From Candidatus Bathyarchaeia archaeon (GTDB lineage Bacteria > Patescibacteriota > Microgenomatia > PFEM01 > JAFGMK01), in contig DATKWK010000023.1 in assembly GCA_035529595.1 (NCBI GenBank), forward strand, positions 78,517-142,516: 64,000 nucleotides of DNA, given 5' to 3'. The notes beneath the pieces are model-generated. The model did not search any database and was not told the origin of the DNA. It saw nothing but the letters and a program-made list of their open reading frames with translations. Shown piece after piece: positions 27,793 through 58,296 of this stretch; positions within the stretch are counted from its first letter, which is position 1; each line of letters begins with the position of its first letter. The position numbers and the translations under genes are program-made.

Positions 27793-27893
27793 TTCAGATT
27801 TCTTGACACACTTTATCATCCTGAACTTAATTCAGGATCTATATAGATTCCGTGTCAAGCACGGAATGACGGGATTGTGTCAAAGAATCTGAG
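27793..27893 (+). mobile_element. MITE-like structured repeat, copy A (about 100 bp, terminal inverted repeats TCAGATTTCTTGACACAC / GTGTCAAAGAATCTGA, two internal hairpins)
   Basis: Near-identical copies at 49242-49342 (+) and 58197-58296 (-). Confidence 0.75.
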
Positions 27894-28018
27894 TAATCAC
27901 CCTGATGTTCCTGAAATTGAAGGTTACTGTTAAAAGACAACTTAAAGTGGAATCCTATAGTAATTGATATTAGTAATATTTTATGATATAGTAACTTTGC
28001 TTTAGAGACCTTGTTGCT

Positions 28019-28041
28019 AAGCCTCTAAAAGAGGTTTTTTG
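28019..28041 (+). terminator. Intrinsic terminator-like hairpin + T-run
   Basis: AAGCCTCTaaaAGAGGTTTTTTG. Confidence 0.5.
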
Positions 28042-28082
28042 TTCTTTAAAAATCCGGGATAATGATAAATTACCGCCTTTGC

Positions 28083-28142
28083 TTCTGCCGCAAAAAAGAG
28101 TCGGCAATTAATTTGCCGGCTGCTTCTTTTTTGCGGCAGAAA
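28083..28142. promoter_or_regulatory. About 60-bp imperfect palindrome (CTGCCGCAAAAAAGAG...GGCAATTAATTTGCC...CTTCTTTTTTGCGGCAG)
   Basis: The arms are reverse complements of each other, centred on AATTAATT. Lies in a roughly 500-bp non-coding gap. Confidence 0.5.
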
Positions 28143-28292
28143 ATCCCTCTTGCTTATTTTTTCTCCTGTCTGTTGGGTCACTTGCGACCCATGCCGGACT
28201 AGCTTTTTTGTTGTTTCCGAAACTTCGGAACGAGCGGACAGAAAGCGAAAAGAGAAAGATAAGTAAGGGGATCAAAAAGGGGGTGAAAAAAA

Positions 28293-28589
28293 GTGCAAAA
28301 GATCGGTCGGATTCTCTGGTGGTCCGTCGTAGTCGGCAGCTGTCTCGGCATAGTCATTTTCGCCAGCCTTCTGGCGAAAAGTTGTCGAGGTGAGGCTGTC
28401 GTTCAGCCACCGACCTCGGTCCCAACCGAGGCGTCGACTCCTCTGCCCGGGGCAGAAGTTTTACCTCAAGAGGTGCCAGTCGCGGCGCCTTCGGACGGGA
28501 GCGGAGAAGTCTTTCTAATCTGCGGAGCGACACTCCTCTTACTAATAGCAGTAGGAGTCCCGAAGCTCCGCAAATCGCTTAAAGGCTAA
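28293..28589 (+). CDS. Small bitopic membrane protein (98 aa, GTG start), GC about 55 %
   Basis: Two hydrophobic helices flank a Pro/Ala-rich segment. Followed by the terminator at 28587-28609. Confidence 0.4.
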   Translation: MQKIGRILWWSVVVGSCLGIVIFASLLAKSCRGEAVVQPPTSVPTEASTPLPGAEVLPQEVPVAAPSDGSGEVFLICGATLLLLIAVGVPKLRKSLKG

Positions 28590-28609
28590 CCCCTCGCTCG
28601 GGGTTTTTC
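28587..28609 (+). terminator. Intrinsic terminator
   Basis: AACCCCTCGCTCGGGGTTTTT. Confidence 0.6.
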
Positions 28610-28929
28610 ACTTATCCTGGTTGGCGGTTGGAGCCTGATCTTTTAAAAGAGGAGGATTTTTTGCCTTCCTTATTTTTGAAAGACCAGATCTATTGTTTTT
28701 TTATTTTTATTGCTCCAACCGCCAAGTTTTATCCCTTTTTTAGTCTTAATAAATTGATAATTGATCCCTCTTCCAGTAGAAAACCCAGCAATATTTTTAA
28801 TCGTGATACTTCAGAGATGTTATTAATCTCTAAATATGCAAAATTTTACTGATTACAGATTTTGAATTAATGATTACCAATTACTCTTCCCTATGCTATA
28901 CTGCCGGCAGGAGGTAGCCTGAAAAGTAT

Positions 28930-29982
28930 TTGATGTTTTTTGATAAATTTTGGCAATTTTTTACCCACGATCTGGGGATAGATTTGGGGACCGCCAATAC
29001 TCTGGTTTATATTGTAGGCAAAGGGGTTGTAATCCGTGAATCTTCGGTAGTGGCACGGCATAAGAAAACTAAGGAAATTCTTGCCATTGGAGCTAGTGCC
29101 AAAAAGATGATGGGTAAAACTCCGGGGACAATTGAAGCGATTAGGCCGTTAAAGAATGGTGTGATCGCTGATTTCGACGCCTGCGAGGTAATGCTTAAGA
29201 AGTATATCCAGTTAGTTCATCAATCAGGCCGATTGGTGCCGATGATTGCCAAACCCCGGGTAGTGATCGGCATTCCTTCCGGAGTAACCGAAGTAGAAAG
29301 AAGAGCCGTTCAGGAAGTAGCCCTTTCTGCCGGAGCCAGACAAGCCTATTTAATTGAAGAACCGATGGCGGCGGCCATCGGCTTGGGATTAGCGGTTCAG
29401 GAAGCCGAGGGTATTTTAGTGGTTGATATTGGTGGCGGAACTACGGAAATTGCCGTTATTTCACTTGGAGGGATTGTTGTCTCCAAATGTTTGCGTATTG
29501 CCGGGGATGAAATGGACGAGGCGATTATCAACTATATCCGTCTTAAGTATTCCCTGCTTTTGGGGCTAGCGACAGCCGAGGAAGTAAAGATTCAGATCGG
29601 TTCCGCCTCGCCCCAGAAGAAGGAAAAACATATCGTCGTGCGCGGTCGGGATCTTGAAGCGGGTCTGCCGAAGTCAGTAAAGCTTTCCTCGACCGAGGTA
29701 AGAGAAGCATTAGCGCCGGTAGTGCGCCGGATCATTGACAGCATTTCGGCGGTGCTTGAGGAAACGCCGCCCGAATTAACCTCCGATATTATTAAAAGAG
29801 GAATTAGCCTCTGCGGTGGTGGATCATTACTGGCAGGAATTGACGAAGTGATCATTGAGGCGACTAAGATTCCGGTCTGGCGAACCGAAAATCCAATGGA
29901 TATGGTTGTCCTGGGTTGTAGTAAGGTTTTGGCCGATCCTGAGCTTTTACAAAAAGTGAAGGTTAGTGGAGGATTAAGGTGA
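28930..29982 (+). CDS. mreB: Rod shape-determining protein MreB (actin-like ATPase)
   Basis: GIDLGTANTLVYIVGKG... (phosphate-1), DIGGGTTEIAVIS (phosphate-2), ISLCGGGSLL (adenosine motif). Confidence 0.9.
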   Translation: MMFFDKFWQFFTHDLGIDLGTANTLVYIVGKGVVIRESSVVARHKKTKEILAIGASAKKMMGKTPGTIEAIRPLKNGVIADFDACEVMLKKYIQLVHQSGRLVPMIAKPRVVIGIPSGVTEVERRAVQEVALSAGARQAYLIEEPMAAAIGLGLAVQEAEGILVVDIGGGTTEIAVISLGGIVVSKCLRIAGDEMDEAIINYIRLKYSLLLGLATAEEVKIQIGSASPQKKEKHIVVRGRDLEAGLPKSVKLSSTEVREALAPVVRRIIDSISAVLEETPPELTSDIIKRGISLCGGGSLLAGIDEVIIEATKIPVWRTENPMDMVVLGCSKVLADPELLQKVKVSGGLR

Positions 29983-30566
29983 CTTATAATCGCCAAATTA
30001 TGATGGCAAAAATAATCTCGCTTGTTTTCAGCCCGGTGCTTACCGTTGGCATGGGAATGCAGCTGCTGCTTTATTTCACTTTCGATCAGGGATGGCTTGG
30101 TTGGTGGCAATTAATGATATTGTCGCTGGTAATTATTTATTTTCCGCTGACTTATTTTTTTATTTCGATCGCCAAAGGCAGGATCGATGCCGATTTGACC
30201 AAACGACAAGCGCGATTACGTTTTTTGGTTTTCGGATTGGCTTGTGGTTTCCTGGGTTTATTCTTAAGTTTTTACTTTTCTGCCTATCTTTTCCGAGTTT
30301 TTTTAGCCTTAACCATCACGGCTTTGGCTTTTGTTCTAGTTACCTTCTGGGACAGGGCAAGTATTCATGTTGGCGGGTCAACGTCATTTTATCTGGTTTT
30401 GAATCTATTATCGCAGTGGCGTTATTTTTATTTATTACCCATAATTCCTTTAGTAGGCTGGGCCCGGCTATTTTTGGGTAAACATGAAACCGCTCAGATT
30501 TTTGAGGGTTTTGTGATTCCCCTAATAGCAATCCCGGCCGGTTTTTACCTTTTACAAATTACTTAG
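29979..30566 (+). CDS. Polytopic membrane protein (195 aa) inserted between mreB and mreC; hypothetical
   Basis: 5-6 TM helices; start overlaps the mreB stop. Confidence 0.4.
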   Translation: MTYNRQIMMAKIISLVFSPVLTVGMGMQLLLYFTFDQGWLGWWQLMILSLVIIYFPLTYFFISIAKGRIDADLTKRQARLRFLVFGLACGFLGLFLSFYFSAYLFRVFLALTITALAFVLVTFWDRASIHVGGSTSFYLVLNLLSQWRYFYLLPIIPLVGWARLFLGKHETAQIFEGFVIPLIAIPAGFYLLQIT

Positions 30567-30568
30567 TA

Positions 30569-31405
30569 ATGAGTAATAAAGATATACGAAAAGCAGTAAA
30601 ACCTTTTTTAATTCTCTTTCTTTTAAGTTTAATAATTATGTATTCCACCAAGTTTGCCTTGGTTAAGAAAGCGCGTAGTTTATTAGATCGTCCGATTTTG
30701 TTTTTACAAAGAAGCGTTTTTTCCGCCAGGCAGAAACTTGGAGATTCGTTAGTTATTTTAAGAAGTGGGCAAGAAAAGTATCAAGAAAAAACATTACTTG
30801 AAGAAAAAACCCGTAATTTAGCCGTTACTTCAGGTCAGTTATCTGTTTGCCGTGAAGAAAGTGCGGCAATGCGTCGCCTTCTGGCAGCACCGCTGCCGCC
30901 GGCCTGGAATTTTATCCCGGCAAAAGTGATCGGTCGTTACCAACAGTTAAAGATTAATGTCGGAAAAAAAGCCGGGGTTGAGTCGGGAATGGTAGTAATT
31001 GCTGATGAGATTCTGGTTGGGAAAATCGACACTGCCGGAGACTATACCAGCAGCGTTATTCTGGTGACTGATTCGTCAGTAAAAATTCCGGTGGTAATTA
31101 GAACTCCCGGGAACCCGGGGATCAAAGCCCGGGGTCTGATAAATGGCTATTTTGACGAACGTTTAAGCCTTTCGGAGGTCTTAAAAAGCGAAGATATTAA
31201 AGAAGGGGACCTCGTTTTTTCCAGCGGCGAAGACAAATCGCCCGACAGTGAAATAGATTGGCTGCCTGATTTGCTAATTGGCAAGATAGACAAAGTTGAA
31301 GAAGGAAAAGAGAAAGTTTTTAAAAAAGCGTGGGCTTATTCTTTACTTGACTTGCAAAATCTGAGGTATGTTTTTGTGGTTAAGGTAGTTCAAATTAAGA
31401 AATGA
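30569..31405 (+). CDS. mreC: Rod shape-determining protein MreC
   Basis: N-terminal TM + coiled coil + beta-domain (...GMVVIADEILVGKIDTAGDYTSSVILVTDSS...). Position between mreB and mreD. Confidence 0.7.
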   Translation: MSNKDIRKAVKPFLILFLLSLIIMYSTKFALVKKARSLLDRPILFLQRSVFSARQKLGDSLVILRSGQEKYQEKTLLEEKTRNLAVTSGQLSVCREESAAMRRLLAAPLPPAWNFIPAKVIGRYQQLKINVGKKAGVESGMVVIADEILVGKIDTAGDYTSSVILVTDSSVKIPVVIRTPGNPGIKARGLINGYFDERLSLSEVLKSEDIKEGDLVFSSGEDKSPDSEIDWLPDLLIGKIDKVEEGKEKVFKKAWAYSLLDLQNLRYVFVVKVVQIKK

Positions 31406-31833
31406 GTTTCACCGTCTTGATATTAATTACATTTGTAATGCTTCTGGTACAGACTACCCTGATACCCTTTGACTGGGCTCTAGTTCTGGTTTTATCAGAA
31501 GCGCTGCTCGCGAAAGATAAGGAAATTGCCTGGCTGGCTTTTGTTACCGGTTTGCTTCTTGATCTTTTTTTAGGTAAACCCTGGGGACTTTCCAGCGCCG
31601 CTTTATTAATTATTGCTTTCTTGGTTTTTTCCGTTAGGCGTTATTTATTAACCCGGAAGCTTATAGTGGTTTATATGATAGCTTTTTTTGGCGAATTTTT
31701 CTTTAATTATTTATTGTTTCGCTCTTTTAATCTTCTCAGGGCTGGTTTTTTTGCTATGGTTTTTTCCCTGGTCTACTTTTTTTTCTCGGCCAAGGAAATC
31801 AAAGATAATCAGGAGCTGAAACTTAAAATTTAA
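31402..31833 (+). CDS. mreD: Rod shape-determining protein MreD (small polytopic membrane protein)
   Basis: 143 aa, 4-5 TM helices, translationally coupled to mreC, precedes PBP2. Confidence 0.55.
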   Translation: MSFTVLILITFVMLLVQTTLIPFDWALVLVLSEALLAKDKEIAWLAFVTGLLLDLFLGKPWGLSSAALLIIAFLVFSVRRYLLTRKLIVVYMIAFFGEFFFNYLLFRSFNLLRAGFFAMVFSLVYFFFSAKEIKDNQELKLKI

Positions 31834-31840
31834 GCAAAAA

Positions 31841-33457
31841 ATGACGGAAAAGAAAAACAGGGTTTTTTTCTTATCATGGCTGCAACTGCTTTTTTTCCTG
31901 GTGCTGGTTGCCCGATTAATCGAGCTTCAATTAATCGAAGGGGAGAAGAATCGGATTCTGGCTGATGAAAACCGAGTGAGGAGAAATATTCTACCGGCCG
32001 GCAGGGGAATCATTTTCGATCGGCAAGGTTTGCCTCTGGTTGAGAATATTCCTCTGTATCGTTATCAAGAAGGCAGCCAAGAAACAAGTTTTAAAAGTAT
32101 TGACCGGCAGACTGCTCTTAAAATTGAATCCCAAGGAGAGAGCGAGGCAAATAAGATCAAGGTTGGTGTTGGCAGAAAATATCTTTATGGAGAAATTCTT
32201 TCACACTTACTCGGCTACATCGGCCAGGTCTCCGAGGAGGAGATTTCATCAGCACATAATGTCCGGCAAGCAGGCGATCTGGTTGGCCGGGGAGGGATTG
32301 AGCAGCAATACGATGCTTTACTTAGAGGAAAGGCCGGCGCGGAAATTTCGGAGACCGATGCTATAGGTGAAAAAGTTAGAACCATTGGAAGAATTGAGCC
32401 GCAAGCCGGTCAGGACTTGCACCTGTCGGTTGATCTTAGGCTGGCTCAAATTGCTCACGAAGCATTAGGCGAACAAGCCGGTGCGATTATTGCTTCCGAA
32501 GTTAAAACCGGCCAGATTCTTTGCCTTGAATCTTTACCGTCTTTTGACCCGAACAAACTTTCCTTAGGAATCAGCACCGAAGAGTATCAGCAAATCCTTG
32601 AAGATCCGCGTAAACCTTTCTTTAACCGAGCCATCGGCGGTGCATATCCGCCCGGTTCGACTTTTAAAATTGTTACCGCCGCCGCCGGTTTAGAGGAAGA
32701 CAAGATTACCGGCAGTACTTTAATTGATGATCCGGGCGTAATAAATGTCGGCCCTTTCAGTTACCGGAATTGGTACTTCACCCAGTATGGCCGGACGGAA
32801 GGCGAGATTAATATCGTCCGGGCTCTTAAGCGTTCAACCGATACTTTCTTTTATCAGTTAGGGGAACGACTCGGTGCCGATCGCCTTTCTGCTTGGGCGA
32901 AGAATTTCGGTCTGGGACAGTTAACCCGGATCGACCTGCCGGGCGAAGTGACCGGTTTGGTGCCTAATCCTGATTGGAAGGAGAAAGTTCGGGGCGAACC
33001 TTGGTTCCTGGGTAACACCTACCATTTTGCCATCGGTCAGGCGGATCTTACGGTTACTCCTCTGCAAATAAATATGATGACTTCCGTGATTGCTGCTAAC
33101 GGTTTGCTTTGCCAACCCGGAATAATTAAGCAGAGCGATTTTAAGCAAGATAATTGCCGTGATTTGAAATTGAAAAAAGCAACACTTCAATTAATTAAGG
33201 AGGGAATGAAAGAAGCCTGTTCGTCTGGGGGGACGGCTTTTCCCTTGTTTGATTTTCGGCCGCAGGTAGCCTGCAAAACCGGTACCGCTGAGTTTGGCGA
33301 TCCTAAAGACCGGACTCATGCTTGGTTGACGGTCTTTGCTCCGGCGGATGATCCGGAAATCGTCATGACCGTTCTGGTTGAAGCCGGCGGCGAAGGATCT
33401 TCAGTCGCCGCCCCGATTGCCAAAAAAATTCTTGAGGCGTGGTTTAAAAAAGGCTAA
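31841..33457 (+). CDS. mrdA: Penicillin-binding protein 2 (class B transpeptidase)
   Basis: N-terminal TM; SxxK = PPGSTFKIV; SxN region; KTGTAE (KTG motif). Genomic context mreBCD-mrdA. Confidence 0.85.
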   Translation: MTEKKNRVFFLSWLQLLFFLVLVARLIELQLIEGEKNRILADENRVRRNILPAGRGIIFDRQGLPLVENIPLYRYQEGSQETSFKSIDRQTALKIESQGESEANKIKVGVGRKYLYGEILSHLLGYIGQVSEEEISSAHNVRQAGDLVGRGGIEQQYDALLRGKAGAEISETDAIGEKVRTIGRIEPQAGQDLHLSVDLRLAQIAHEALGEQAGAIIASEVKTGQILCLESLPSFDPNKLSLGISTEEYQQILEDPRKPFFNRAIGGAYPPGSTFKIVTAAAGLEEDKITGSTLIDDPGVINVGPFSYRNWYFTQYGRTEGEINIVRALKRSTDTFFYQLGERLGADRLSAWAKNFGLGQLTRIDLPGEVTGLVPNPDWKEKVRGEPWFLGNTYHFAIGQADLTVTPLQINMMTSVIAANGLLCQPGIIKQSDFKQDNCRDLKLKKATLQLIKEGMKEACSSGGTAFPLFDFRPQVACKTGTAEFGDPKDRTHAWLTVFAPADDPEIVMTVLVEAGGEGSSVAAPIAKKILEAWFKKG

Positions 33458-33502
33458 GTATCTTTTCTTGACCTTCTTTCTTTAATCCCTTAAAGTTAAG
33501 AA

Positions 33503-34612
33503 ATGCCCAACGGAAATTTTGACCTTGATGAAGAGCGGCTTTATTGGCTGGCTTTTTCGGTTTTTGTCGGTATCGGTCCGAAAAGATTTGCCCTTTTAAA
33601 AAATTATTTCGGCTCGGCTAAAAAAGCCTGGCAGGCAAATCCGAATGAGTTGACAAGGATAGGCCTTGGCTCTTTATTATCAAGGCAACTGGCAGAGTTC
33701 CGGAAAAAATTCGATCCTTTAATTTATTACAGAGATTTACGAAGGCAGGGTTTTAATTGTCTTTTCTTAGACCAGCTTGATTATCCGGAAAACCTTGTCA
33801 GAATCGAGAGTCCGCCTTTCGTTTTGTACGTCTGGGGGCAAATTGAGAAAAAAGACAGGCTGGCTCTGGCGGTTGTCGGAACACGCAAAATGACCGGTTA
33901 TGGCGGCCAGGTAACTGAAAGTTTGGTAACTGATCTAGCCGCTGCCGGTCTCACTATTGTTTCCGGGCTGGCTCGGGGAGTGGATTCGATGGCCCACCAA
34001 AGCGTTCTTTCTGCCGGCGGCCGGACTATCGCCGTTTTGGGTTCGTCTTTGGATTGGATTTATCCCCGGGAAAATCAAGATCTAGCCAGAAAAATTGCCG
34101 CTGGTCGGGGAGCGGTCATTTCTGAATATCCTCTTGGCACCCAACCCTATCTCGGTAATTTTCCGGCGCGTAATCGAATTATTTCCGGCTTAAGTCTGGG
34201 AACCTTAGTGGTCGAGGGTGGTGAGAAGTCCGGCAGTTTAATTACCGCCCGTTTGGCTGCCGAGCAGGGAAGGGAAGTTTTTGCTGTTCCCGGCCCGATT
34301 TATAATCCGGGGACCAAAGGGCCGGCTTATCTCGTTCGACTGGGAGCAAAATTGGTCTTGTCCGTGGATGATATACTTGAGGAATTAAATCTTGGTACCC
34401 GGAAAGGAACTTCGGAAAAACAGCCAATTCTTTCTGATTCGGCTGAAGAAAGTTTGCTTTTGACACTATTGGAGAAAGAAGCTAAACATATTGATCAACT
34501 GGTCAGAGAATCAGGATTGACAACGGCTCAAGTTACCAGTTTAATGACAATGATGGAAATTAAGGGCAAAATAAAAGATATGGGGGGACTGGTTTATATA
34601 ATCAAAAAATAA
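33503..34612 (+). CDS. dprA: DNA-processing protein DprA (Smf)
   Basis: Rossmann-like DprA core: VVGTRKMTGYGGQVTE...IVSGLARGVDSMAHQ...VLGSSLDWIYPREN...LVVEGGEKSGSLITA; C-terminal winged-helix-like region. Confidence 0.8.
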   Translation: MPNGNFDLDEERLYWLAFSVFVGIGPKRFALLKNYFGSAKKAWQANPNELTRIGLGSLLSRQLAEFRKKFDPLIYYRDLRRQGFNCLFLDQLDYPENLVRIESPPFVLYVWGQIEKKDRLALAVVGTRKMTGYGGQVTESLVTDLAAAGLTIVSGLARGVDSMAHQSVLSAGGRTIAVLGSSLDWIYPRENQDLARKIAAGRGAVISEYPLGTQPYLGNFPARNRIISGLSLGTLVVEGGEKSGSLITARLAAEQGREVFAVPGPIYNPGTKGPAYLVRLGAKLVLSVDDILEELNLGTRKGTSEKQPILSDSAEESLLLTLLEKEAKHIDQLVRESGLTTAQVTSLMTMMEIKGKIKDMGGLVYIIKK

Positions 34613-34624
34613 AAAAGAAAAATT

Positions 34625-36631: not shown

Positions 36632-36648
36632 CAGGCTTTAAACACGGC

Positions 36649-40662: not shown

Positions 40663-40689
40663 GATCACTTTTAGTCTGGAAAAGATTCT

Positions 40690-45664: not shown

Positions 45665-45761
45665 GTTAAAATAAAGCGAATTTAAACTCCTGCCCTGTCT
45701 ATAATTATAGAAAGAAATACCTTTTTTATAAAATTTTAAAGAAGAAGACATAATTACCGGG

Positions 45762-46253
45762 ATGGTAGAGAGAGATAATGGAGAGACAGAAGCAGTAGTT
45801 GGGAGAAGGGTTCGTTTGGCTGAAGATATATTTTGGGCTTGGGCACAAAGTGATCTTTACGGTGAGACTGTGTATCTGACCTTAACTGACGGACAGCGTC
45901 TCGCCCTTGATATTGAATATGGTCTTTGGGAGGACATACTGGATGATGTTTTGGATTGGGAAAGAGAAGAAGATGATGAAGATGAGTGGAAAACACTTGC
46001 TGAACGGGAAGGAATTGAAGCTAAATTACACGAGTTGGGTTTGAATAAAGATTTTTATTTTTTTTTCATTATTAGTGATCCGACGAGAGAGGAAGGAGAA
46101 GTTGGTCATTGTTTTGGCATTTATTCTGATCGGCAAACGGTTGGGGTTTTAAAAAGATTAGAAAAAAAATATGATTATTGTTTTGGAATCGATAAAGTGA
46201 TTCCTCGTGATATAGTAGATGCCTTTTGGCAAGCTTTAGCTAGCGCTGACTAG
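45762..46253 (+). CDS. Acidic hypothetical protein (163 aa), paralog of 47782-48237
   Basis: Shares LTLTDGQRLALDIEYGLWEDILDDVL / LALTDGRQLALEIGYVSWDDMLYSVL and C-terminal ...GIDKVIPRDIVDAFWQAL / ...GVDGVIPDEIALALEIAL blocks with the paralog. Confidence 0.5.
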   Translation: MVERDNGETEAVVGRRVRLAEDIFWAWAQSDLYGETVYLTLTDGQRLALDIEYGLWEDILDDVLDWEREEDDEDEWKTLAEREGIEAKLHELGLNKDFYFFFIISDPTREEGEVGHCFGIYSDRQTVGVLKRLEKKYDYCFGIDKVIPRDIVDAFWQALASAD

Positions 46254-46335
46254 AAAAATCTGCTCGAAAAAAAGTTGAATAGCCTTCATTAATTTAACCT
46301 GCCCAAAGAAAAAGTTAATAGTTTCTTAAATAAAC

Positions 46336-47745: not shown

Positions 47746-47781
47746 TATTACTGTACTGATTAATATTTTTTATCATTATGG

Positions 47782-48237
47782 ATGATTTTTGAAAACGACC
47801 GGACAAATTATGATAAGTTGTCTACTGAAAGAAGAATACCCTTAGCCCAATACATGTTTCATATGTTAGCCCGAGATGGATTAACCGAAGAGATCTTTCC
47901 ATTAGCTTTAACTGACGGACGACAACTTGCTCTTGAGATTGGATATGTTAGTTGGGATGATATGCTGTATTCTGTTTTACAAGCGGGTGAGGAACGAGAT
48001 AGGCTTCTGATACAACTAGCTGAACTTGGTTTAGATCAACAATTTGTCTATTTAATTTTCGTGCAAGCTGCGCCAGAGGGAAGAGAACCACAGGAGGCAA
48101 CTTGTTACATCGATCGAGAAACCTTTAACGTTTTACATCCTTTTGAAAAAGAATATCAGTGGGATTTTGGAGTTGATGGGGTAATTCCTGATGAGATAGC
48201 TTTGGCTTTGGAAATAGCCTTGCAGTCCCGAATTTAA
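47782..48237 (+). CDS. Acidic hypothetical protein (151 aa), paralog of 45762-46253
   Basis: See paralog entry. Confidence 0.5.
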   Translation: MIFENDRTNYDKLSTERRIPLAQYMFHMLARDGLTEEIFPLALTDGRQLALEIGYVSWDDMLYSVLQAGEERDRLLIQLAELGLDQQFVYLIFVQAAPEGREPQEATCYIDRETFNVLHPFEKEYQWDFGVDGVIPDEIALALEIALQSRI

Positions 48238-48339
48238 TTCTGAGTTTAATGAAGCATAAATCTTTTTGCTACCATGACCTAGCGTCTGCTAGCAAAACAA
48301 ACTGGTAGTTTATAACCTAAGCGATATTATTTAACTGAA

Positions 48340-49224
48340 GTGGCCAAACAAGAAGCCGAATCAAGATTTGATTTCGTACCTAGCCCAGAAATTCTTTATC
48401 TCGAGAGCCCGGAGCAACTTCAGGACAGAGAGATTTTTGTCTATCGGGTACATGATCCTGAACCGATGTTTGCGCGCCAGGTAGTGGAGAGGCTTTGGGG
48501 AATAGCAGGTGAAGTAAATCCAGGAACTGAAATGCCTATTAAATTTTACCGGAGAATGCCTCATGGAATTAAAAGCGATTCGGTTCATGACGAGTTCAAT
48601 ATATCTTTGGCAGTGCCGATTGAAAATCAATTAGCGGAAGCATTAGGAATTTGTCAGGGATTAGCTTTTATTGATCGGAAGAATTCCGATCTTCCGTGGA
48701 ATTTAGTGGTTGAAAGCCCGGTGATCGCCTCAAGCGAAGGAGACGCTAGTCATTTTTTATTGATTGATCTTGATGGTAAGGTTAATAGCCTAGATCAGTT
48801 CGTAATCGAAAATAGTTTTAAAGCAGCCGGTTTTTCCGGGTTTTTATTGGTTAGCGGCGCCTCTTATCATTACTGGTCTGATTTTACTGTTTCGGCGGAT
48901 AGTCTGCCGGCTTTTTTGGGGACTGCGGCTGCGGCTTTAACACCGCAAGTTTCCGATAATGATCGTTTATTGTCGATTGCTTTTCGAATGTCAGTTTGCC
49001 AAAATTTGGCAGAAGGTCAGGAATTAGCTTCTCAAATTCTTAACCGGAACAGCGCTCTTTTTATTCCTTCTTCAGGCAGTGGTTTTAAAAGCGGGAGTTT
49101 TTTTGATTTTCGCTGGGCTTGTCACCGTTTATTAGCCGGGAAATTAGCTTTGAGGGTAAGTTCGGACCGATATCCGCAAGAACCGATATTGATTTCCGAA
49201 TTAACGGCCAGAAGCTTTTCATGA
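48340..49224 (+). CDS. Hypothetical protein (294 aa)
   Basis: No recognisable motif. Follows the acidic paralog in the same way the 469-aa protein does. Confidence 0.4.
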   Translation: MAKQEAESRFDFVPSPEILYLESPEQLQDREIFVYRVHDPEPMFARQVVERLWGIAGEVNPGTEMPIKFYRRMPHGIKSDSVHDEFNISLAVPIENQLAEALGICQGLAFIDRKNSDLPWNLVVESPVIASSEGDASHFLLIDLDGKVNSLDQFVIENSFKAAGFSGFLLVSGASYHYWSDFTVSADSLPAFLGTAAAALTPQVSDNDRLLSIAFRMSVCQNLAEGQELASQILNRNSALFIPSSGSGFKSGSFFDFRWACHRLLAGKLALRVSSDRYPQEPILISELTARSFS

Positions 49225-49241
49225 ATGACGAAAAGTAAGAG

Positions 49242-49342
49242 TTCAGATTTACTGGCACACTTGGTCATGCTGAACTTGATTCAGGATCTACATAGATTCC
49301 GTGTCAAGCACGGAATAACGGGATTGTGTCAAAGAATCTGAG
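49242..49342 (+). mobile_element. MITE-like structured repeat, copy B
   Basis: TTCAGATTTACTGGCACAC...GATTCCGTGTCAAGCACGGAATAACGGGATTGTGTCAAAGAATCTGAG; about 90 % identical to copy A. Confidence 0.75.
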
Positions 49343-49425
49343 CGGTTACGACGAAAACAGATTATGGTTAATATTCTCTTTATTTGATAAGATAAATAAT
49401 TAGAGTTTACTTGGAGGGCAGGCAG

Positions 49426-50043: not shown

Positions 50044-50113
50044 CTTTTGGCATCATGATACAAATCATGATATCAGGTTTTCAAGAAGAGAAATTTTTGT
50101 TACACTGCAAGGG

Positions 50114-50671: not shown

Positions 50672-50825
50672 GTTTCTTTTTTTCATCATTGCCAGATTCT
50701 GACCGGGATGTTAAAATAATCCCATATTTAATTAATCACGCACACCGGCTGGACTCCTTGCTGACTTCTTGGCCGGTGGAGGAGAAAAGGAGGCGACGTT
50801 ACTTGGGATACGTCGTAATTCATCT

Positions 50826-51689: not shown

Positions 51690-51701
51690 CGGAGGAAGTG
51701 T

Positions 51702-52169
51702 ATGGCGGGAATCATAATCGATCAAATTAAAAACTTAAGAAAAAAAACCGGAGCTGGTGTTATGGATTGCCGTCGGGCTCTGGAGAATAGTGGCGGGGAC
51801 GAAAAAAAGGCGCTTGAATGGCTGAAGAAGAAAGGTATCGCTAAAGCCGCCGAAAAAGGGCAGCGGGAGGTAAAAAGCGGTCTGGTAGTTGCTTATACTC
51901 ATGGCGATGGTGATATCGTAGCGGTAGCGGAAATTGCCTGCGAAACCGATTTTGTGGCCAAGAATAAAGAATTTAAAAAACTGGCCAATGAAATTTGTCT
52001 GCAGGTGGCGGCGATGAAACCCAAAGATATTGACGAACTGATGAAACAACCTTATATTAGAGATGAAGCGAAATCAGTCAAAGAACTGGTTACCGAGGCA
52101 ATTGCCACGATCGGAGAAAACATTAAAGTGCGGCGGATTGCCCGGTTTGAACTGGGAGAAAAATTTTAG
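51702..52169 (+). CDS. tsf: Elongation factor Ts (short form, 155 aa)
   Basis: IKNLRKKTGAGVMDCRRALENSGGDEKKALEWLKKKGIAKAAEK (UBA-like N domain) ... Confidence 0.85.
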   Translation: MAGIIIDQIKNLRKKTGAGVMDCRRALENSGGDEKKALEWLKKKGIAKAAEKGQREVKSGLVVAYTHGDGDIVAVAEIACETDFVAKNKEFKKLANEICLQVAAMKPKDIDELMKQPYIRDEAKSVKELVTEAIATIGENIKVRRIARFELGEKF

Positions 52170-52277
52170 AAATTACTAATGAAATTTCAATCTTCAGAAA
52201 CATTGGCACTTCCAGGCGGAAAAGCGGAACTTTTATCCTTACCGGTTAAATAATTAAACTCAAAAAGGGAGGTTTAC

Positions 52278-52832
52278 ATGGATTTTGATTCTATCAGGCA
52301 GCGAATGCAGAAAACGCTTCAATTCTTAAAAGATGAGCTGGCTCAGATTAAAACCGGCCGGGCAACGCCGTCACTGGTGGAAAAAATTGTCGTTGACGCT
52401 TATGAGACCAGAATGCCGCTGGTAGAGCTGGCAACTATTGGCGCACCGGAACCAAATGAGCTGGTGATTACACCTTTTGATCAATCGATTATTAAAAACA
52501 TCGAAAGAGCTGTTTCCGAACGTCATGAATTAAGACTGTCTCCGGTCGTTGATGAGCAAGTGATCCGGATTAAAATTCCTCCGCTAACAGAGGAGAGAAG
52601 GAAAGAGCTGGCTCGAGTTTTAAGTCAAAAGCTGGAAGCAGGCCGGGTGGCAATCCGCCAAATCCGGCATGAAGAACGCTCCAATTTAAAGAAGCTGTCT
52701 GAAGACGGAGGAATCAATGAAGATGAAAAAAGAAAATACGAAGATGATTTGCAGAAATTGACAGAGGAGATGAACGGAGAAATCGAGACGGCAGGTGAAG
52801 TTAAGGAGAAAGAGATTAAAGGGGATTGGTAA
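52278..52832 (+). CDS. frr: Ribosome recycling factor
   Basis: ...ATPSLVEKIVVDAYETRMPLVELATIGAPEPNELVITPFDQS... Confidence 0.85.
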   Translation: MDFDSIRQRMQKTLQFLKDELAQIKTGRATPSLVEKIVVDAYETRMPLVELATIGAPEPNELVITPFDQSIIKNIERAVSERHELRLSPVVDEQVIRIKIPPLTEERRKELARVLSQKLEAGRVAIRQIRHEERSNLKKLSEDGGINEDEKRKYEDDLQKLTEEMNGEIETAGEVKEKEIKGDW

Positions 52833-53939
52833 ATGTTTTTGACAATATTCGTTACTCTGATTACTCTTTCGGTTTTGATTTTGGTTCACGAATTGGGCCA
52901 TTTCCTGGCGGCTAAAAAAGGGGGGATTAAAGTCGAGGAATTTGGCGTGGGCTATCCGCCCAGAATTTGGGGGAAAAAGGTCGGTAAAACGGTCTATTCG
53001 ATTAACTGGGTTCCCTTTGGCGGGTTCGTCCGTCTTTATGGCGAGGAGGAAATCAATGAAGGCAAGAAAGAAGGTGCTTTTTGGGCCCAAAGTAAGAAAG
53101 TGCGTTTGCTGGTAATTCTTGCCGGTGTCTTCGCCAACCTGCTTTTATCTTTTTCGCTTTTTTCGCTGATATATTACCTCTCAGGAATTCCGACTGAGAC
53201 TGACAAGGTGATAGTTGAAGCGGTGGCTAAAGACTCGCCGGCGGCCGCAGCGGGAATCAAGCCTGAAGATGTGATTATTGCTTCTGAAAGGCAAACGATT
53301 ACTTCGATTGATGATTTTATCAGTAAAATCGAAACCAAAAAGGGAGAAGAAATCAGTTTAGAGTTATCCAGGAATGGCGAAAATCTCAAGTTAACGGTTG
53401 TCCCCCGGAAAGATGAGGTTGAAGGACAGGGTCCCTTGGGAGTAATTGTCTCCAATTACCAAATGATTAAATATCCATTTTGGCAGATGCCGGTGCGAAG
53501 TATGATTGAGGGTGGTAAGGAAACCTATTCCTGGACGATAATGATTGTCGGCGAGTTAGTAAAGATGATTAAAAATCTGCTTCTTGCCGGTCAAGTGCCT
53601 CGGGATATCGCCGGCCCGATCGGAATTTTCCAGGTCACTTCGCAAGTTGCCAAATCGGGTATTGTGCCGATCCTGCAGTTTATTGGGATCCTCTCTATTA
53701 ACTTGGCGGTAATAAATATTTTTCCCTTTCCGGCGCTTGACGGCGGCCAGTTTTTTTTCCTGGTAATTGAAGCTCTAATTGGTCGGCGATCACCCCGAAA
53801 GCTAGAAAAATGGGCTCAGGCAGTCGGCATGGCTTTTCTATTGTTTTTAATGCTGCTCGTGACCGTCAACGACATCCGGCGGATTTTACTGACAACCCAG
53901 TTTGGAAGCCGCCTTAGGAATTTCTTACAGTTTTTATAA
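52833..53939 (+). CDS. rseP: RseP-type site-2 protease (M50 zinc metalloprotease with PDZ domain)
   Basis: HELGHFLAAKKGG (HExxH), PDZ-like middle region, C-terminal NLLPFPALDGG (LDG). Confidence 0.8.
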   Translation: MFLTIFVTLITLSVLILVHELGHFLAAKKGGIKVEEFGVGYPPRIWGKKVGKTVYSINWVPFGGFVRLYGEEEINEGKKEGAFWAQSKKVRLLVILAGVFANLLLSFSLFSLIYYLSGIPTETDKVIVEAVAKDSPAAAAGIKPEDVIIASERQTITSIDDFISKIETKKGEEISLELSRNGENLKLTVVPRKDEVEGQGPLGVIVSNYQMIKYPFWQMPVRSMIEGGKETYSWTIMIVGELVKMIKNLLLAGQVPRDIAGPIGIFQVTSQVAKSGIVPILQFIGILSINLAVINIFPFPALDGGQFFFLVIEALIGRRSPRKLEKWAQAVGMAFLLFLMLLVTVNDIRRILLTTQFGSRLRNFLQFL

Positions 53940-54021
53940 ATCTCCGGTCGTGGATAATCAGCGTGATCCCAATCTTGCCTGGCGTTTTGTCTTCCACAAA
54001 AGTTATGATATCATACGGGAG

Positions 54022-55263
54022 ATGAGATATTCAAAACTGTTCGGAAAAACCAAAAAAAGCGCTAAAAAGTTCGATACAGCCAATGCCACCCTGCTGGTTA
54101 AAGCCGGTTTTGTCGACCAGTTGATGGCCGGAGTATACAGTTACCTGCCTTTAGGATTACGGGTTTTGGAAAAAATTAAGCAGATTATCCGCGAAGAAAT
54201 GAATGCCATCGGCGGACAGGAAATTTTCCTGCCGGCGCTTCATCCGGCAGAAAATTGGAAAAAAACCGGCGGCTGGGATAACATCGATGTTTTATTTAAG
54301 TTAAAAAGCCGGACCGGTCGCGATTATGCCTTAGGCCAAAGCCATGAGGAAGTGGTCACACCTTTAGTTAAAGAATACGTGACTTCCTGGAAAGAGTTGC
54401 CGATCTTGGTTTATCAGATTCAAAATAAATTCCGTGACGAGCTCCGGGCGAAATCGGGTATTTTACGGGGGCGGGAGTTTGGTATGAAAGATCTTTATAG
54501 TTTTCATCTGAACCAGGCGGATTTTAATCACTATTATGCAGTAATCAAAAAGGCTTATTTGAAAATATTTTCCCGTTGCGGCTTGACCGCCAAAGTAACT
54601 GAGGCTTCAGGCGGGTCTTTCACTAAAAAAATATCTTATGAATTTATGGTTTTGACCGATGCCGGAGAAGACGATATTTTCTATTGTCCGGACTGTGATT
54701 ACTGCGTCAATGCCGAAATTGCCAAAGTAAAAGAGGTCGCTGCTTGTCCTTTATGCGCTAAAGCCAATCTAAAAAAGGCTCGTGCATCAGAAGTGGGCAA
54801 TGTCTTTGACTTGGGACGTAAATATACCAAGGATTTTGATTTTTATGTTCTGGATAAAAGTAGCCGCAAAGTCTATCCGATTATGGGCTGTTACGGTATC
54901 GGTGTAACCCGGCTGATGGGGGTAATCGTTGAGAGATATCATGATCAGGACGGTATCGTTTGGCCGGATTCGGTGGCGCCTTTCTTGGCTTATATTTTGC
55001 CGATTGGCAAGGAAGAAAAGACGGTCAGCTTTGCTGAAATGGTTTATCAAGCACTACTTGATAAGGGGATTGAAGTTTTATTGGATGATCGGTCGGATGT
55101 TTCTGCCGGAGAAAAATTTGCCGACAGCGATTTAATCGGCCTTCCTTACCGGTTGGTAATTTCTGACAAAACTACCGCCAAAGAAATGATTGAAGTAAAA
55201 AGAAGAGATAAAGATCAAAGTAAACTGGTCAGTTTAACTCAGCTTTTAGCCAAGCTTTCCTAA
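54022..55263 (+). CDS. proS: Prolyl-tRNA synthetase (compact form)
   Basis: Class II aaRS motifs; ...FLPALHPAENWKKTGGWD..., ...ILRGREFGMKDLYSFH..., ...GCYGIGVTRLMG...; start at MRYSKLFG. Confidence 0.8.
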   Translation: MRYSKLFGKTKKSAKKFDTANATLLVKAGFVDQLMAGVYSYLPLGLRVLEKIKQIIREEMNAIGGQEIFLPALHPAENWKKTGGWDNIDVLFKLKSRTGRDYALGQSHEEVVTPLVKEYVTSWKELPILVYQIQNKFRDELRAKSGILRGREFGMKDLYSFHLNQADFNHYYAVIKKAYLKIFSRCGLTAKVTEASGGSFTKKISYEFMVLTDAGEDDIFYCPDCDYCVNAEIAKVKEVAACPLCAKANLKKARASEVGNVFDLGRKYTKDFDFYVLDKSSRKVYPIMGCYGIGVTRLMGVIVERYHDQDGIVWPDSVAPFLAYILPIGKEEKTVSFAEMVYQALLDKGIEVLLDDRSDVSAGEKFADSDLIGLPYRLVISDKTTAKEMIEVKRRDKDQSKLVSLTQLLAKLS

Positions 55264-55324
55264 CAAAGGTAGATATTTAAAAAGAGATATAAAAATTACT
55301 CAATGTGTCAGGACTGGGTCGCAA

Positions 55325-56164
55325 ATGAACAAAATTATCACTCATGTAAATCCCGATCTGGACGCGATTTTCTCCGTTTGGCTGGTAAAGCGTTTTTTGC
55401 CCGGCTGGGAGAAAGCCAAAGTCTGTTTCGTGCGAGCCGGCCAAACTCTGGATAACCTGGCGGCAGATAGCGTTCCCGGTGTCTTACACGTGGACGTGGG
55501 GATGGGAGAACTTGACCATCATCAGTTTATCGGTTTAACTTCGGCAACTCAATTGACCTGGGATTATATTCTAATCAAAAGAAAAGGTCAGCCGTTGAGT
55601 CCTTTGGAAACCGAGGCACTCAACCGTTTGGTTCCGGTGGTGACGGAGGTTGATAACGGTCGAACGGTCGCCTGGCCGGAAATTACCCTCGATCGCTCCC
55701 AACTCTATTTGGATAATTTGATTTACGGTCTTAAAAAAGTTATTACCGATGACGAAGTCGTCGTTAAAGAAGGCCTGATGATCCTTGATAGTTTGCTTAA
55801 AGCCTTCAAGGATAAAATCCGGGCCGAAGAGATGATTGAGAACGAATCAATCATTTTTCAATCGCCTTGGGGAAAAGCCATTGCCTGCAAGACTGGTAAT
55901 GAAATGATCTTATGGGAAGCAGAGTATCGTGGTTATGCCCTGGTTTTAAAATACGATTCGACGTATAGGAACCGGGTTAAAATTTATGCCCGGTTCGACA
56001 GCAAGGTTGATTTGACTAAAGTTTACCGCCAGCTTAGTAAAATTGATTCCCAGGCTGATTGGTTCTTGCATGCTTCCAAAAAATTGCTCTTAATCAGTAG
56101 CCGGCCGGAGGCTCGGGGGACCAGTCTTTCTTTTGAAGAGATAGTAGCGCTTTTAAAAAAATAA
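55325..56164 (+). CDS. DHH-family phosphoesterase (NrnA-like), short form
   Basis: ITHVNPDLDAIFSVWL (motif I) and GMGELDHHQ (DHH motif). Confidence 0.55.
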   Translation: MNKIITHVNPDLDAIFSVWLVKRFLPGWEKAKVCFVRAGQTLDNLAADSVPGVLHVDVGMGELDHHQFIGLTSATQLTWDYILIKRKGQPLSPLETEALNRLVPVVTEVDNGRTVAWPEITLDRSQLYLDNLIYGLKKVITDDEVVVKEGLMILDSLLKAFKDKIRAEEMIENESIIFQSPWGKAIACKTGNEMILWEAEYRGYALVLKYDSTYRNRVKIYARFDSKVDLTKVYRQLSKIDSQADWFLHASKKLLLISSRPEARGTSLSFEEIVALLKK

Positions 56165-56214
56165 TGCGGCAATTGATCCTCTTGTGCTGGAATTGATAAA
56201 GCTGAAAGTACCGA

Positions 56215-56826
56215 TTAAAGCAGTTCTTTATTATCATCATCAGGCTGAACAGTGCCAAGATTATCAACTGTTATGCTATTATCTGGTCTAAGTTTAATTT
56301 GATAATATGTTTGATCATCAGCAAATATAAATACATACCAGCAAAATTGATCGTTTCCTGTTTTTACCCCCTGATACGTCAGTGTCCCTTGTTGGAAATC
56401 AGCTGCCGTAACAGTTAATCCGCCACTAGCAAAGGGAACAGTTTGATCAAAGTAGGTCTCTCCCTCTTCGGGTTCGCGACCAATGCCAACGTCGAGTCGA
56501 TCACCTTCGCGAAGATGGACGGCTGCTGTAATATCTATAGTTTCTGGATTATGATCATCGTCAATCACGATTCGAAAGCCATAGTAAGCAACCTGACTCC
56601 CTTCCGAATAAACCGGAGTGCCTTTGAAAGTAATTGTTCCTTGATCATAGTTAGCGCCAGCAATAAAATCATATTCCGGTGCTGGTTGAACTTCCGGTCT
56701 AACCGGAGCTGGCGGCTGTGGTTGCTGGGGAAGACATCCTGAGATAAGAGCGGCCGCTGCGGCTATTTTTAAAAAATGTCTTCTTGATAGTGACGGCGGT
56801 TCTCTGTTTTCCGGTGTTCTGCTCAT
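56215..56826 (-). CDS. Tat-signal lipoprotein, hypothetical (203 aa)
   Basis: SRRHFLKIAAAAALISGC: twin-Arg motif followed by lipobox LISGC. Confidence 0.5.
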   Translation of the reverse strand: MSRTPENREPPSLSRRHFLKIAAAAALISGCLPQQPQPPAPVRPEVQPAPEYDFIAGANYDQGTITFKGTPVYSEGSQVAYYGFRIVIDDDHNPETIDITAAVHLREGDRLDVGIGREPEEGETYFDQTVPFASGGLTVTAADFQQGTLTYQGVKTGNDQFCWYVFIFADDQTYYQIKLRPDNSITVDNLGTVQPDDDNKELL

Positions 56827-57299
56827 TTTCTTAAGTAACTTTGGCTCCTTTATTTATAGAGTTGATTATATCAGCTTATAGTTATATTTGCAAGGTAGTT
56901 TAGCAGCGTTTTAAGGTTCTTCGGTCCGGTATCGGAAATGATGCGATCAGTTTCCGTCTTTATGGAGTTCCAGCGATAGAATCTGGTTTTTGCTGCCATG
57001 CACTAGATCATGGTAGCAAAGAAAAACCACCCGATTTTTACCAGATGCCAGATAACAGGAAACATTTGAAATTTGAAAATAGTTTTTTTTTAAAAATTTA
57101 AGGATTAAAGAATCCGGGGACTGTCAGGTTGTTTTCTGGGTTTGAAAAGAGTGCGAGAGAAGACGGGGTTTATATATAGTCGATGAAAGTTTTTTTAATT
57201 GCAGCAAAAAGAATTGCAATTACTTTCGACGACCAAACCCCGTCTTCCGCGCGGATGAGACCGTACTCCCGGAGGCCCGGTTCCGGGAGTGCTAGGAGG

Positions 57300-57890
57300 T
57301 CAGTAGAGTTTGACCTCAATCCGATTACCTTCGAAAAGTCGCACTTCCGCCCTCGTGTAAGGAGGGTAAGGCAGCATGAAGATGAAGTAGTAGAATGAGC
57401 CTTCTCTGCGACCCTTGATAGTCATTGTGTAGTTAGTTGTGTCAATCTCTTCGACTAAGCGGAAGTCTCCGAGATAGGACCACTTACCAACGTACACTTC
57501 GGAGAAGTCTTCACTTCCGAAGAAGGTTTTCCACTCGAGACTTGCCGATTGCGTGACCGTGTTGTACACGATTGATCCGTACCAGTTACCTCTTTCATCG
57601 GGTATCTCGATTCTGTATGCTGTTACATCTTCAATCTCATCACTTGTTGTATTGTAGTACGGAACGGTAGATTGGATTAGCTTGATCGTAATCCTTCCTT
57701 CTCCGAAATTTGCGGCCGAGAAGACGAAATTCTCAGCCGTGACCTCGCCTTCTCCGGTAAAGTCCGGCGACCACGGTTTTGGCGTGGGCGTCGGCGTGGG
57801 GGTAACATTGTAGACTACCCCTACTGGAGTGCACGATAAGGTGGCTGCCGCTAGAACAAGCGCCACCACGATCCATCTTCTAGTGTTCAT
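57300..57890 (-). CDS. Secreted hypothetical protein (196 aa), GC about 55 %
   Basis: Signal peptide MNTRRWIVVALVLAAATLSC; beta-rich; strong RBS GGAGGAG. Confidence 0.45.
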   Translation of the reverse strand: MNTRRWIVVALVLAAATLSCTPVGVVYNVTPTPTPTPKPWSPDFTGEGEVTAENFVFSAANFGEGRITIKLIQSTVPYYNTTSDEIEDVTAYRIEIPDERGNWYGSIVYNTVTQSASLEWKTFFGSEDFSEVYVGKWSYLGDFRLVEEIDTTNYTMTIKGRREGSFYYFIFMLPYPPYTRAEVRLFEGNRIEVKLY

Positions 57891-58196
57891 TATTTTCTCC
57901 TCCGGGCCCTCAGAGGACGGGCTTTTTCTAAGATATATTCACCTCGGAGGAGTCAAATCCGCCTGTCGGCGGGTTGACACCATCCGAGGTGCCAAAAAAA
58001 GTCAAAAAGTCCGTCTTGTGAAGGTCCGGAAAGGAAACGGGCTAACCGCTTTGGCCTTATCCGCGATTTTAAAGAGCATTAACTTAAAAAAGCTTGACTC
58101 CGAAAAGGCAAATTCTTTTGGGCAAGCTTTAAATAAATTAAGCTGATTATAACGAAATGGAATTTGATAATCAAGCTATAGGATAGGGGTGGCTAA

Positions 58197-58296
58197 TCGA
58201 ATTATTTGCACCAATTCCGTCATTCCGTGCTTGACAGGGAATCTATATAGATCCTGAATCAAGTTCAGGATGACAGAGTGTGTTAAGAAATCTGAA
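58197..58296 (-). mobile_element. MITE-like structured repeat, copy C (inverted orientation, one TIR degraded)
   Basis: rc = ...TTCAGATTTCTTAACACACTCTGTCATCCTGAACTTGATTCAGGATCTATATAGATTCCCTGTCAAGCACGGAATGACGGAATTGGTGCAAA. Confidence 0.7.

Follow-up and report, generated by a model that had tools for sequence, protein, structure and literature searches.

Inverted repeats of the IS66 family of insertion sequences (IS) begin with GTAAGCG and yield 8-bp direct repeats (PMC11946415), and their GTAA start has also been described elsewhere (PMC12888890). ISDge4, which belongs to the ISBst12 group and has a single open reading frame (ORF), is bounded by the inverted repeats GTGACTACTCAGCA and GTAACTGCTCAGCA and by an 8-bp direct repeat (PMC12898284). 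In Neisseria, dRS3, a 20-bp inverted repeat of the form ATTCCC-N8-GGGAAT, flanks the RS elements in neisserial intergenic mosaic elements (NIMEs); it has been proposed as a recombinase site and is the integration site of filamentous prophages, and its function is unknown (PMC1797815). Here we analysed a 64-kb stretch of contig DATKWK010000023.1 (hereafter the window) from a bacterium of the candidate phyla radiation (CPR) with a small genome, in which a 115-bp repeat occurs in three copies, A, B and C. This repeat is probably a non-autonomous transposable element of the miniature inverted-repeat type (MITE), moved in trans, in which ends of the IS66/ISBst12 type enclose a dRS3-like hairpin doublet. 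It would add a clear case of a MITE whose ends are of the IS66 (ISBst12) type; a 2024 review of prokaryotic MITEs makes no mention of IS66 or CPR bacteria.

Two inverted hairpin units around a short spacer, an intergenic position and many copies are likewise characteristic of the REPINs, built from repetitive extragenic palindromes (REP), which however have no target-site duplication and no IS-type ends. As a rule, the sequence of a REPIN is particular to one species, and the gene for the REP-associated tyrosine transposase (RAYT) that mobilizes it is linked to it. The Correia elements of Neisseria (CREE, also called nemis) are ∼100-155 bp long and duplicate TA upon insertion. They are small, intergenic, near-palindromic MITEs that can adjoin gene starts (PMC10969869), but their inverted repeats are unrelated to those described here, and promoters and RNase III sites are documented for the Correia elements. 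That IS-type ends can enclose a REP-like core has a precedent in QMITE2 of Coxiella burnetii, a MITE with a REP-type palindrome inside (PMC10969869), which differs in its length of ∼190 bp, in a GTAG-type REP targeted by IS1111, in its end family and in the phylum of its host.

Ends and target-site duplications

Alignment, a repeat finder and a profile search all recovered the three copies named in the original prediction (Table 1), and nhmmer with the family profile gave exactly three matches in the window (E = 6e-37 to 2e-32). All coordinates given here are positions in the window, and loci numbered L001 and so on are stretches from other genomes or contigs. By the repeat finder, A and B are 91% identical over 108 nt, A and C 86% over 110 nt, and B and C 84% over 96 nt; without gaps, 101, 95 and 88 positions match over the full 115 bp for the same pairs in this order. 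As had been predicted, each of these short copies is intergenic, one of them is inverted, and terminal inverted repeats and two internal hairpins are present in alignments and folds; none of the copies contains an ORF. The prediction held for the existence of the copies but not for their limits and their length of ∼100 bp: a metagenome scan with the central 31-mer of the element returned 23 loci, and in these aligned relatives similarity reaches 7-8 nt past each of the predicted ends, which gives 115 bp. Because the ends had been placed too far in, the target-site duplications had stayed hidden.

With the limits set at GTAAGGG...GTAATCAC, in full GTAAGGG-TTCAGA...TCTGA-GTAGTTAC, copy B is flanked by a perfect 8-bp direct repeat, and the flanks of copy C have 7 bp, CCCTATC, in common (a 7/8 match with the left end shifted one base inward). 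Perfect 8-bp duplications also surround the relatives in L130 (ATTGAGTA), L132 (TAATTTAC), L140 (TGGAGGAC), L076 (TACTATAT), L093 (TATGAAAA), L088 (GAAAGAAA) and L137 (CTCTCCCG), and in L143 the duplication matches at 7/8 positions. When GT[AG]A at both termini and a duplication of at least 7/8 were demanded, an automatic scan found 5 cases compared with 0 in five shifted controls; a generic scan for a duplication plus an inverted repeat, with no GTAA condition, showed no enrichment (5 versus 10 in the control).

Full-length relatives lie in other contigs between unrelated flanks (L130, L131, L132, L140, L143, L076 and L093). The relative in L130 is 96% identical to copy A and lies between Lon-like and PNPase genes, and outside the element these flanks have no similarity to the window. 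In L147, a syntenic relative of the window, the spacer between the Wzy-like gene and mreB is 112 bp long without the element, compared with 1158 bp in the window. Thus, the duplications, together with relatives in different flanks, point to insertion by a transposase making 8-bp staggered cuts. These insertions demonstrate recent transposition in a reduced genome of ∼0.85 Mb.

Two further observations concern relatives of the element. At 2668-2951 of L137, two adjacent or nested GTAAC-ended elements have one common 8-bp duplication, and the second of them carries other GTCAT hairpins, GTCATTGCGATCC...GCAATC and GTCATCGCGAGG...GCGATC, and keeps the order end, hairpin, spacer, hairpin, end. Among the PLSDB plasmids, blastn with the MITE gave one weak match, which lies inside a coding sequence and is ascribed to chance.

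The left end and the reverse-complemented right end match at 18 of 26 positions in copies A and B and at 14 of 26 in copy C. A GT(A/G)A start is found at five of the six window termini (window ends for comparison with the IS below are GTAAGGGTTCAGAT, GTAAGAGTTCAGAT, GTGATTACTCAGAT and GTAACCGCTCAGAT), and the termini conforming to the pattern GTAA-N4-TCAG include GTAAGGGTTCAGATTTCTTGACAC and GTAACCGCTCAGATTCTTTGACAC. As reference we read eight single-ORF IS of the IS66 family (ISBst12 group), namely that of the Geobacillus plasmid pHTA426 and seven related ones carried by plasmids of Deinococcus, Nostoc, Trichormus, Aeromonas, Bacillus, Acaryochloris and Chlorohelix. The pHTA426 IS has a single 485-aa ORF with DDE_Tnp_IS66 (1.9e-64), zf-IS66 and DUF6444, the ends GTATCTATTCAGCCC / GTAACTATTCAGCCC and the duplication GACGAGTT. 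Further ends were read as GTGACTACTCAGCAG / GTAACTGCTCAGCAC in ISDge4, GTAAGGATTCAGGT in the Nostoc IS and ISAva2, GTAAGTATTCACCGG in ISKpn15, GTAACTACTCAGCTT in the B. thuringiensis pLM4 IS and GTAACAATTCAGCC in the Chlorohelix IS. A perfect 8-bp duplication flanks six of the eight (pHTA426 IS, ISDge4, Nostoc IS, ISAva2, ISKpn15 and the Acaryochloris IS, GTTACTGCCCAGGC), and none is evident at the pLM4 IS (best 5/8) or the Chlorohelix IS. Seven of the eight start with GT(A/G)A; GTAA-N4-TCA(G/C) termini are present in 6/7 plasmid-borne relatives, the Acaryochloris IS beginning with GTTA, and in 4/7 (ISKpn15, Nostoc IS, ISAva2 and Chlorohelix IS) a TTGAC box follows ∼8-10 nt past the TCAG box.

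In direct comparison, the left end of copy A (GTAAGGGTTCAGA) matches that of the Nostoc IS and ISAva2 (GTAAGGATTCAGG) at 11 of 13 positions, and the right end in L130 (GTAACTACTCAGA) matches the pLM4 IS (GTAACTACTCAGC) at 12 of 13. Based on the end sequences and the length of the duplication, we grouped the element with the ISBst12-group IS66 elements. In common with ISDge4, ISKpn15, ISAva2, ISAs21 and the pHTA426 IS it has GTAA-N4-TCAG termini, often with TTGAC next, imperfect inverted repeats of ∼20-26 bp and an 8-bp target-site duplication. However, these IS are 1.45-1.63 kb long and encode a DDE_Tnp_IS66 transposase, whereas the MITE is non-coding and has only 115 bp, and its TTGACA box lies 5 nt past the TCAG box instead of 8-10 nt. 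The original prediction had read the repeat as a MITE and had named the lack of further copies and of target-site duplications as what would speak against this; both copies elsewhere and 8-bp duplications were found, and together with the IS-type ends they support the MITE signature.

Several observations weigh against this assignment. With the pHTA426 transposase as query, tblastn detected no IS66-family gene, either in the window or among 149 loci. Of the cognate transposase that the original prediction had proposed to look for, a family with matching ends came to light (IS66/ISBst12) but, in these sequences, not the gene. Nor did a long element bounded by these repeats turn up in the window or the loci, whether in a fuzzy inverted-repeat search or among inverted pairs with GTAA ends at distances of 0.09-3.5 kb. 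Moreover, the left terminus of copy C is GCGA and not GTAA, the repeat flanking copy A matches at just 5/8 positions, and L147, whose MreB is 79% identical, has diverged too far for exact alignment of the insertion point. Finally, within the first and last 110 nt of the eight reference IS there are no GTCAT hairpins, which make up the core of the element, or other likeness to it.

From the ends we infer mobilization in trans by an IS66-family enzyme. An ISBst12-group DDE transposase, encoded elsewhere in the genome or in an earlier host, would bind both ends, with the ∼26-bp inverted repeats (GTAA-N4-TCAG, then 5 nt, then TTGACA) as its recognition ends; the target would be cut with an 8-bp stagger and the element inserted, leaving an 8-bp direct repeat. 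The near-perfect palindrome may help to join the two ends, or it may be a passenger.

The hairpin core and its spread across bacteria

In the predicted folds, every copy forms a long outer stem with two inner hairpins, and on either strand its stability, set against dinucleotide shuffles, has z values of -3.2 to -7.0. A single 25-nt frame, which consists of GTCAT, a 6-bp stem, a loop, the returning stem and ATC, underlies both hairpins, the two being inverted relative to each other: hairpin 1 is GTCAT-CCTGAA-CTTGA-TTCAGG-ATC, and hairpin 2, once reverse-complemented, reads GTCAT-TCCGTG-CTTGA-CACGGA-ATC. Folds of this stability, with z down to -7, would also suit a structured small RNA or a cis-acting RNA family with a three-way junction, and the frame is kept by compensatory stem changes, as judged from 30 distinct partner stems in other genomes. 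However, both strands of each copy fold about equally well, as a DNA palindrome would. Rfam 15 at gathering score gave four tRNAs only in the window, none on the element, and for copy A nothing credible up to E = 10; no promoter- or terminator-like site lies at the copies except a weak match at 27774-27795; and one copy is inverted relative to the adjoining genes. The target-site duplications mean an origin by transposition, with which later transcription would still be compatible. We therefore regard an RNA family as very unlikely.

Since only the ends are common with the reference IS, the interior is not that of a deleted parent IS, as it would be in a type I MITE. The best-supported description is a chimeric (type II) MITE in which a REP/dRS3-like palindromic doublet is enclosed by ends of the IS66 type. 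One gonococcal sequence (PMC7593972) reads GTCATTCCCGCGAAAGCGGGAATC, 58 nt, GATTCCCACTTTCGTGGGAATGAC-GGGATT. The gonococcal units and the core in the window have the same convergent frame, GTC-ATTCC...GGAAT-C, around a short spacer, and the GGGATT past hairpin 2 in the window is the GGGATT of the gonococcal sequence; on these two grounds, the core resembles a dRS3-RS-dRS3 unit with a 6-nt spacer. The spacing within the hairpins differs, being N8 in dRS3, ATTCC-N11-GGAAT in hairpin 2 and ATCC-N15-GGAT in hairpin 1, while the frame GTCAT...ATC is common. Exact dRS3-form units (GTCATTCCCGCGCAGGCGGGAATC) are present in two of the fetched loci. NIMEs form long arrays with no IS-type outer ends or duplications, whereas the window has single doublets inside IS66-type ends, three in number and none in an array. 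In the literature searched, dRS3 is reported from Neisseria only.

The 22-mer of hairpin 2, GATTCCNTGTCAAGCACGGAAT (21 specified bases), was searched in one genome per species (596 Gb), and occurs exactly in at least 120 stretches compared with ∼0.3 expected by chance according to our own arithmetic and, among the matches listed, in more than 15 phyla. Since hairpin 2 had to be matched exactly in both collection scans, these figures give count and spread, not degree of conservation. The hosts include Alpha-, Beta- and Gammaproteobacteria, Campylobacterota, Thermodesulfobacteriota and SAR324; Nitrospirota, Nitrospinota, Chloroflexota, Planctomycetota and Ignavibacteria; Bacteroidota, with two Flagellimonas isolates; and Cyanobacteria, Melainabacteria, Elusimicrobia, Caldisericia, WOR-3, Bacillota and several CPR lineages. 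The scan did not select for partner hairpins, and a convergent framed partner whose stem is perfect over 7 bp or more lies within 90 nt upstream at 68 of 150 sites, compared with 0.0 in shuffles. These partners have 30 distinct stem sequences in one fixed frame, which indicates compensatory variation. Signatures of IS66-type ends accompany ∼8-10 of 145 hairpin-2 sites, and the other sites have different outer repeats (e.g. of a Syntrophus type), none, or tandem arrays. Upon clustering of 479 ORFs from the loci, no transposase recurs near the hairpins. By eye, the recurrent families resemble housekeeping genes (GalE, Mfd, RecJ and UvrA-like), and one set of autotransporter paralogues is confirmed by Pfam.

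Recurrence of the exact hairpin 2 at this rate suggests recognition of sequence and not of structure alone. Hence the copies might be binding sites of a host DNA-binding protein, kept for regulation, with the palindrome GTGTCAAGCAC as the site. The neighbours in the window have no common function (Wzy-like ligase, MreB, a primase-like protein, thymidylate kinase and adenosine kinase), hairpin 2 stands beside unrelated housekeeping genes in other genomes and no common regulator gene is evident, all of which makes regulatory sites of this kind highly improbable as an account of the element. For the hairpin core taken by itself, a small-RNA or a protein-binding role, the alternatives offered in the original prediction, is still compatible with these data.

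It is also conceivable that mobility or function resides in the hairpin doublet alone, a REPIN/NIME-like palindrome on which an enzyme of the Y1 (RAYT) or IS110 type would act, the outer repeats being an extension of the palindrome. The doublet is far commoner than IS66-type ends, it has convergent framed partners as described above, it forms arrays elsewhere (with periods of 112 nt in L034 and 57 nt in L054), the same dRS3-RS-dRS3 layout exists in Neisseria (PMC1797815), and a Y1_Tnp protein is encoded in L145, a relative of the host. However, elements that move in the manner of REP/REPIN or IS200/605 do not duplicate their target site, whereas here 8-bp duplications flank the outer repeats and not the doublet; the head of the units is GTCAT and not the GTAG of REPs; the window has no Y1 gene, and L145 no GTCAT hairpins; and no transposase family recurs near the hairpins. 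We consider movement of the doublet on its own improbable, and a MITE with IS66/ISBst12-type ends, carrying the doublet as its core, is the reading that we prefer. The Y1_Tnp gene of L145 (6862-7506; 214 aa, IS200/RAYT-like), a CPR relative with an 80% identical MreB, directly follows mreBCD-PBP2; as a lead to a RAYT it was dropped, the gene being absent from the window and hairpin units from L145.

The core is the more consequential point, for an identical 22-nt sequence in more than 15 phyla is combined with the architecture of dRS3 and NIMEs. We tentatively raise the possibility, which we hold to be less likely than not, that the doublet belongs to a pan-bacterial class of palindromic units constrained in both sequence and structure (GTCAT, a covarying stem of 6 bp, a loop of GAAA or CTTGA, the returning stem and ATC), of which Neisseria dRS3/NIME would be the only described instance. 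In that case, an enzyme or host factor of wide distribution would recognize the class, and its units would pass between phyla, reduced CPR genomes included, partly inside IS66-type MITEs and possibly in phages. NIME-like arrays would then be built next to surface-protein genes in some genomes, for example beside the autotransporter paralogues of OZ245366.1. What the Neisseria dRS3/NIME repeats do and where they come from has been a question ever since meningococcal genomes were first sequenced, and if the link to Neisseria holds, this question would become accessible by comparison across bacteria.

Some of the loci are of interest in their own right. In OZ245366.1, a metagenome-assembled genome (MAG) of Thermodesulfobacteriota (L025, L034, L039, L079 and L080), tandem hairpin-doublet units of ∼112 nt adjoin paralogous genes of large autotransporters (Pfam Autotransporter beta-domain, 9.6e-9), which parallels the Neisseria NIME arrays beside surface-protein genes. 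A Sulfurimonas MAG (L054, 1121-1290) has three 57-nt units in head-to-tail order, each with hairpin 2, and past them a short tandem repeat of another kind. In the phage-like contig IMGVR_UViG_3300031707_006565 (L001, 2940-2961), a lone hairpin-2 unit, TATAGATTCCGTGTCAAGCACGGAATGAC, stands directly past another hairpin and near phage-like ORFs (unannotated), with no partner unit and no IS-type ends.

Gene setting and transcription signals

Copy A lies between a Wzy_C/TPR (Wzy-like ligase) gene and mreB, 27 nt upstream of the likely ATG of the Wzy-like gene, a gene of the cell envelope. An AEP-like primase gene precedes copy B, which begins 10 nt past its TGA stop (49222-49224); the thymidylate kinase gene (tmk) follows ∼70 nt downstream of the copy, on the same strand as the primase gene. 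Copy C neighbours an adenosine kinase gene. The nearest relatives of the window MreB are proteins labelled Pacebacteria, Shapirobacteria and other Patescibacteria, and an entry 100% identical to it lies on an 846,852-bp JGI contig, from which we take the host to be a CPR bacterium with a small genome.

The position of copy B just past a stop codon and the stable, GC-containing hairpins are what bidirectional rho-independent terminators, or hairpins stabilizing mRNA, would show. However, no T-run follows any hairpin, and in a scan for terminator-like hairpins the one match at a copy is the weak one at 27774-27795, over the left end of copy A. Moreover, the genes on either side of copies A and C are divergent, so that these copies precede start codons, and duplications and IS-type ends are unexpected for terminators, which leaves this explanation as the least probable of those considered here. 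Otherwise, the scan found no promoter- or terminator-like site in or abutting any copy, the remaining sites being at least 30 nt away. The idea that the TTGACA boxes serve as promoters was discarded, as they face inward and the scan accepted no sigma-70-like pair within the copies.

A terminator past copy A had been taken in the original prediction as a hint that the element is transcribed. This did not hold: the terminator-like hairpins (28019-28046 and 28099-28131) lie 120-230 nt downstream and have their own strong promoter-like site at 27964-27992 (TTGATA-17-TATAGT with TG). Thus they appear to form a separate unit and give no evidence for transcription of the element. The stretch of ∼1 kb between copy A and mreB (27901-28930) is absent from L147, contains a long palindrome at 28083-28141, has no Rfam match and may be a small transcription unit.

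Table 1. Positions of the MITE copies, their parts and a second repeat family in the window
Feature	Position	Strand	Description and evidence
MITE copy A	27786-27900	+	115 bp; alignment and repeat finder; nhmmer E = 5.8e-37
MITE copy B	49235-49349	+	115 bp; repeat finder, profile search
MITE copy C	58189-58303	-	115 bp, inverted; right inverted repeat degraded (14/26)
Left terminal inverted repeat, copy A	27786-27811	+	GTAAGGGTTCAGATTTCTTGACACAC; GTAA-N4-TCAG box and TTGACA box
Right terminal inverted repeat, copy A	27875-27900	-	GTGATTACTCAGATTCTTTGACACAA, read from the end
Left flank, copy A	27778-27785		CCTGGGGC; decayed target-site duplication
Right flank, copy A	27901-27908		CCTGATGT; 5/8 match to left flank
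Left target-site duplication, copy B	49227-49234		GACGAAAA; 8/8 identical to right one
Right target-site duplication, copy B	49350-49357		GACGAAAA
Flank on left-end side, copy C	58304-58311		CCCCTATC on minus strand; common 7-bp CCCTATC
Flank on right-end side, copy C	58181-58188		CCCTATCC on minus strand
Hairpin unit H1, copy A	27815-27839	+	ATCAT-CCTGAA-CTTAA-TTCAGG-ATC (consensus GTCAT...ATC); fold, 25-nt frame
Central spacer, copy A	27840-27845		TATATA, symmetry centre of the element
Hairpin unit H2, copy A	27846-27870	-	GTCAT-TCCGTG-CTTGA-CACGGA-ATC on minus strand; fold, unit finder
Hairpin unit H1, copy B	49264-49288	+	Alignment
Hairpin unit H2, copy B	49295-49319	-	Alignment, pattern match
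Hairpin unit H1, copy C	58250-58274	-	GTCATCCTGAACTTGATTCAGGATC; unit finder
Hairpin unit H2, copy C	58219-58243	+	One stem mismatch (CCCTG)
Second repeat family, copies	∼872, 2515, 6488, 7652, 8254, 9472, 10106	+	

Other repeats in the window

A second repeat family, with the core AGCAGGGGCTGGTGAACTTTGTTAGAAC, has seven copies between 872 and 10140, all on the plus strand (Table 1). Several of them lie ∼35-250 nt upstream of plus-strand ORF starts, often with TAGTC ∼45 nt later, and they could be a common regulatory site or leader. Within an 872-aa ORF (18543-21161, plus strand), a CGAC-rich stretch that repeats at multiples of 6 nt extends from 20215 to 21121. Two 33-nt stretches, TTTGCTACCATGACCTAGCGTCTGCTAGCAAAA at 48265-48297 and TTTTGCTGCCATGCACTAGATCATGGTAGCAAA at 56988-57020, are 82% complementary and each lie just past an ORF end; possibly they represent another small type of hairpin repeat or terminator. 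Finally, a 71-nt direct repeat with 76% identity (45882-45952 and 47908-47978) lies inside the ORFs 45762-46253 and 47782-48237, which are probably paralogues.

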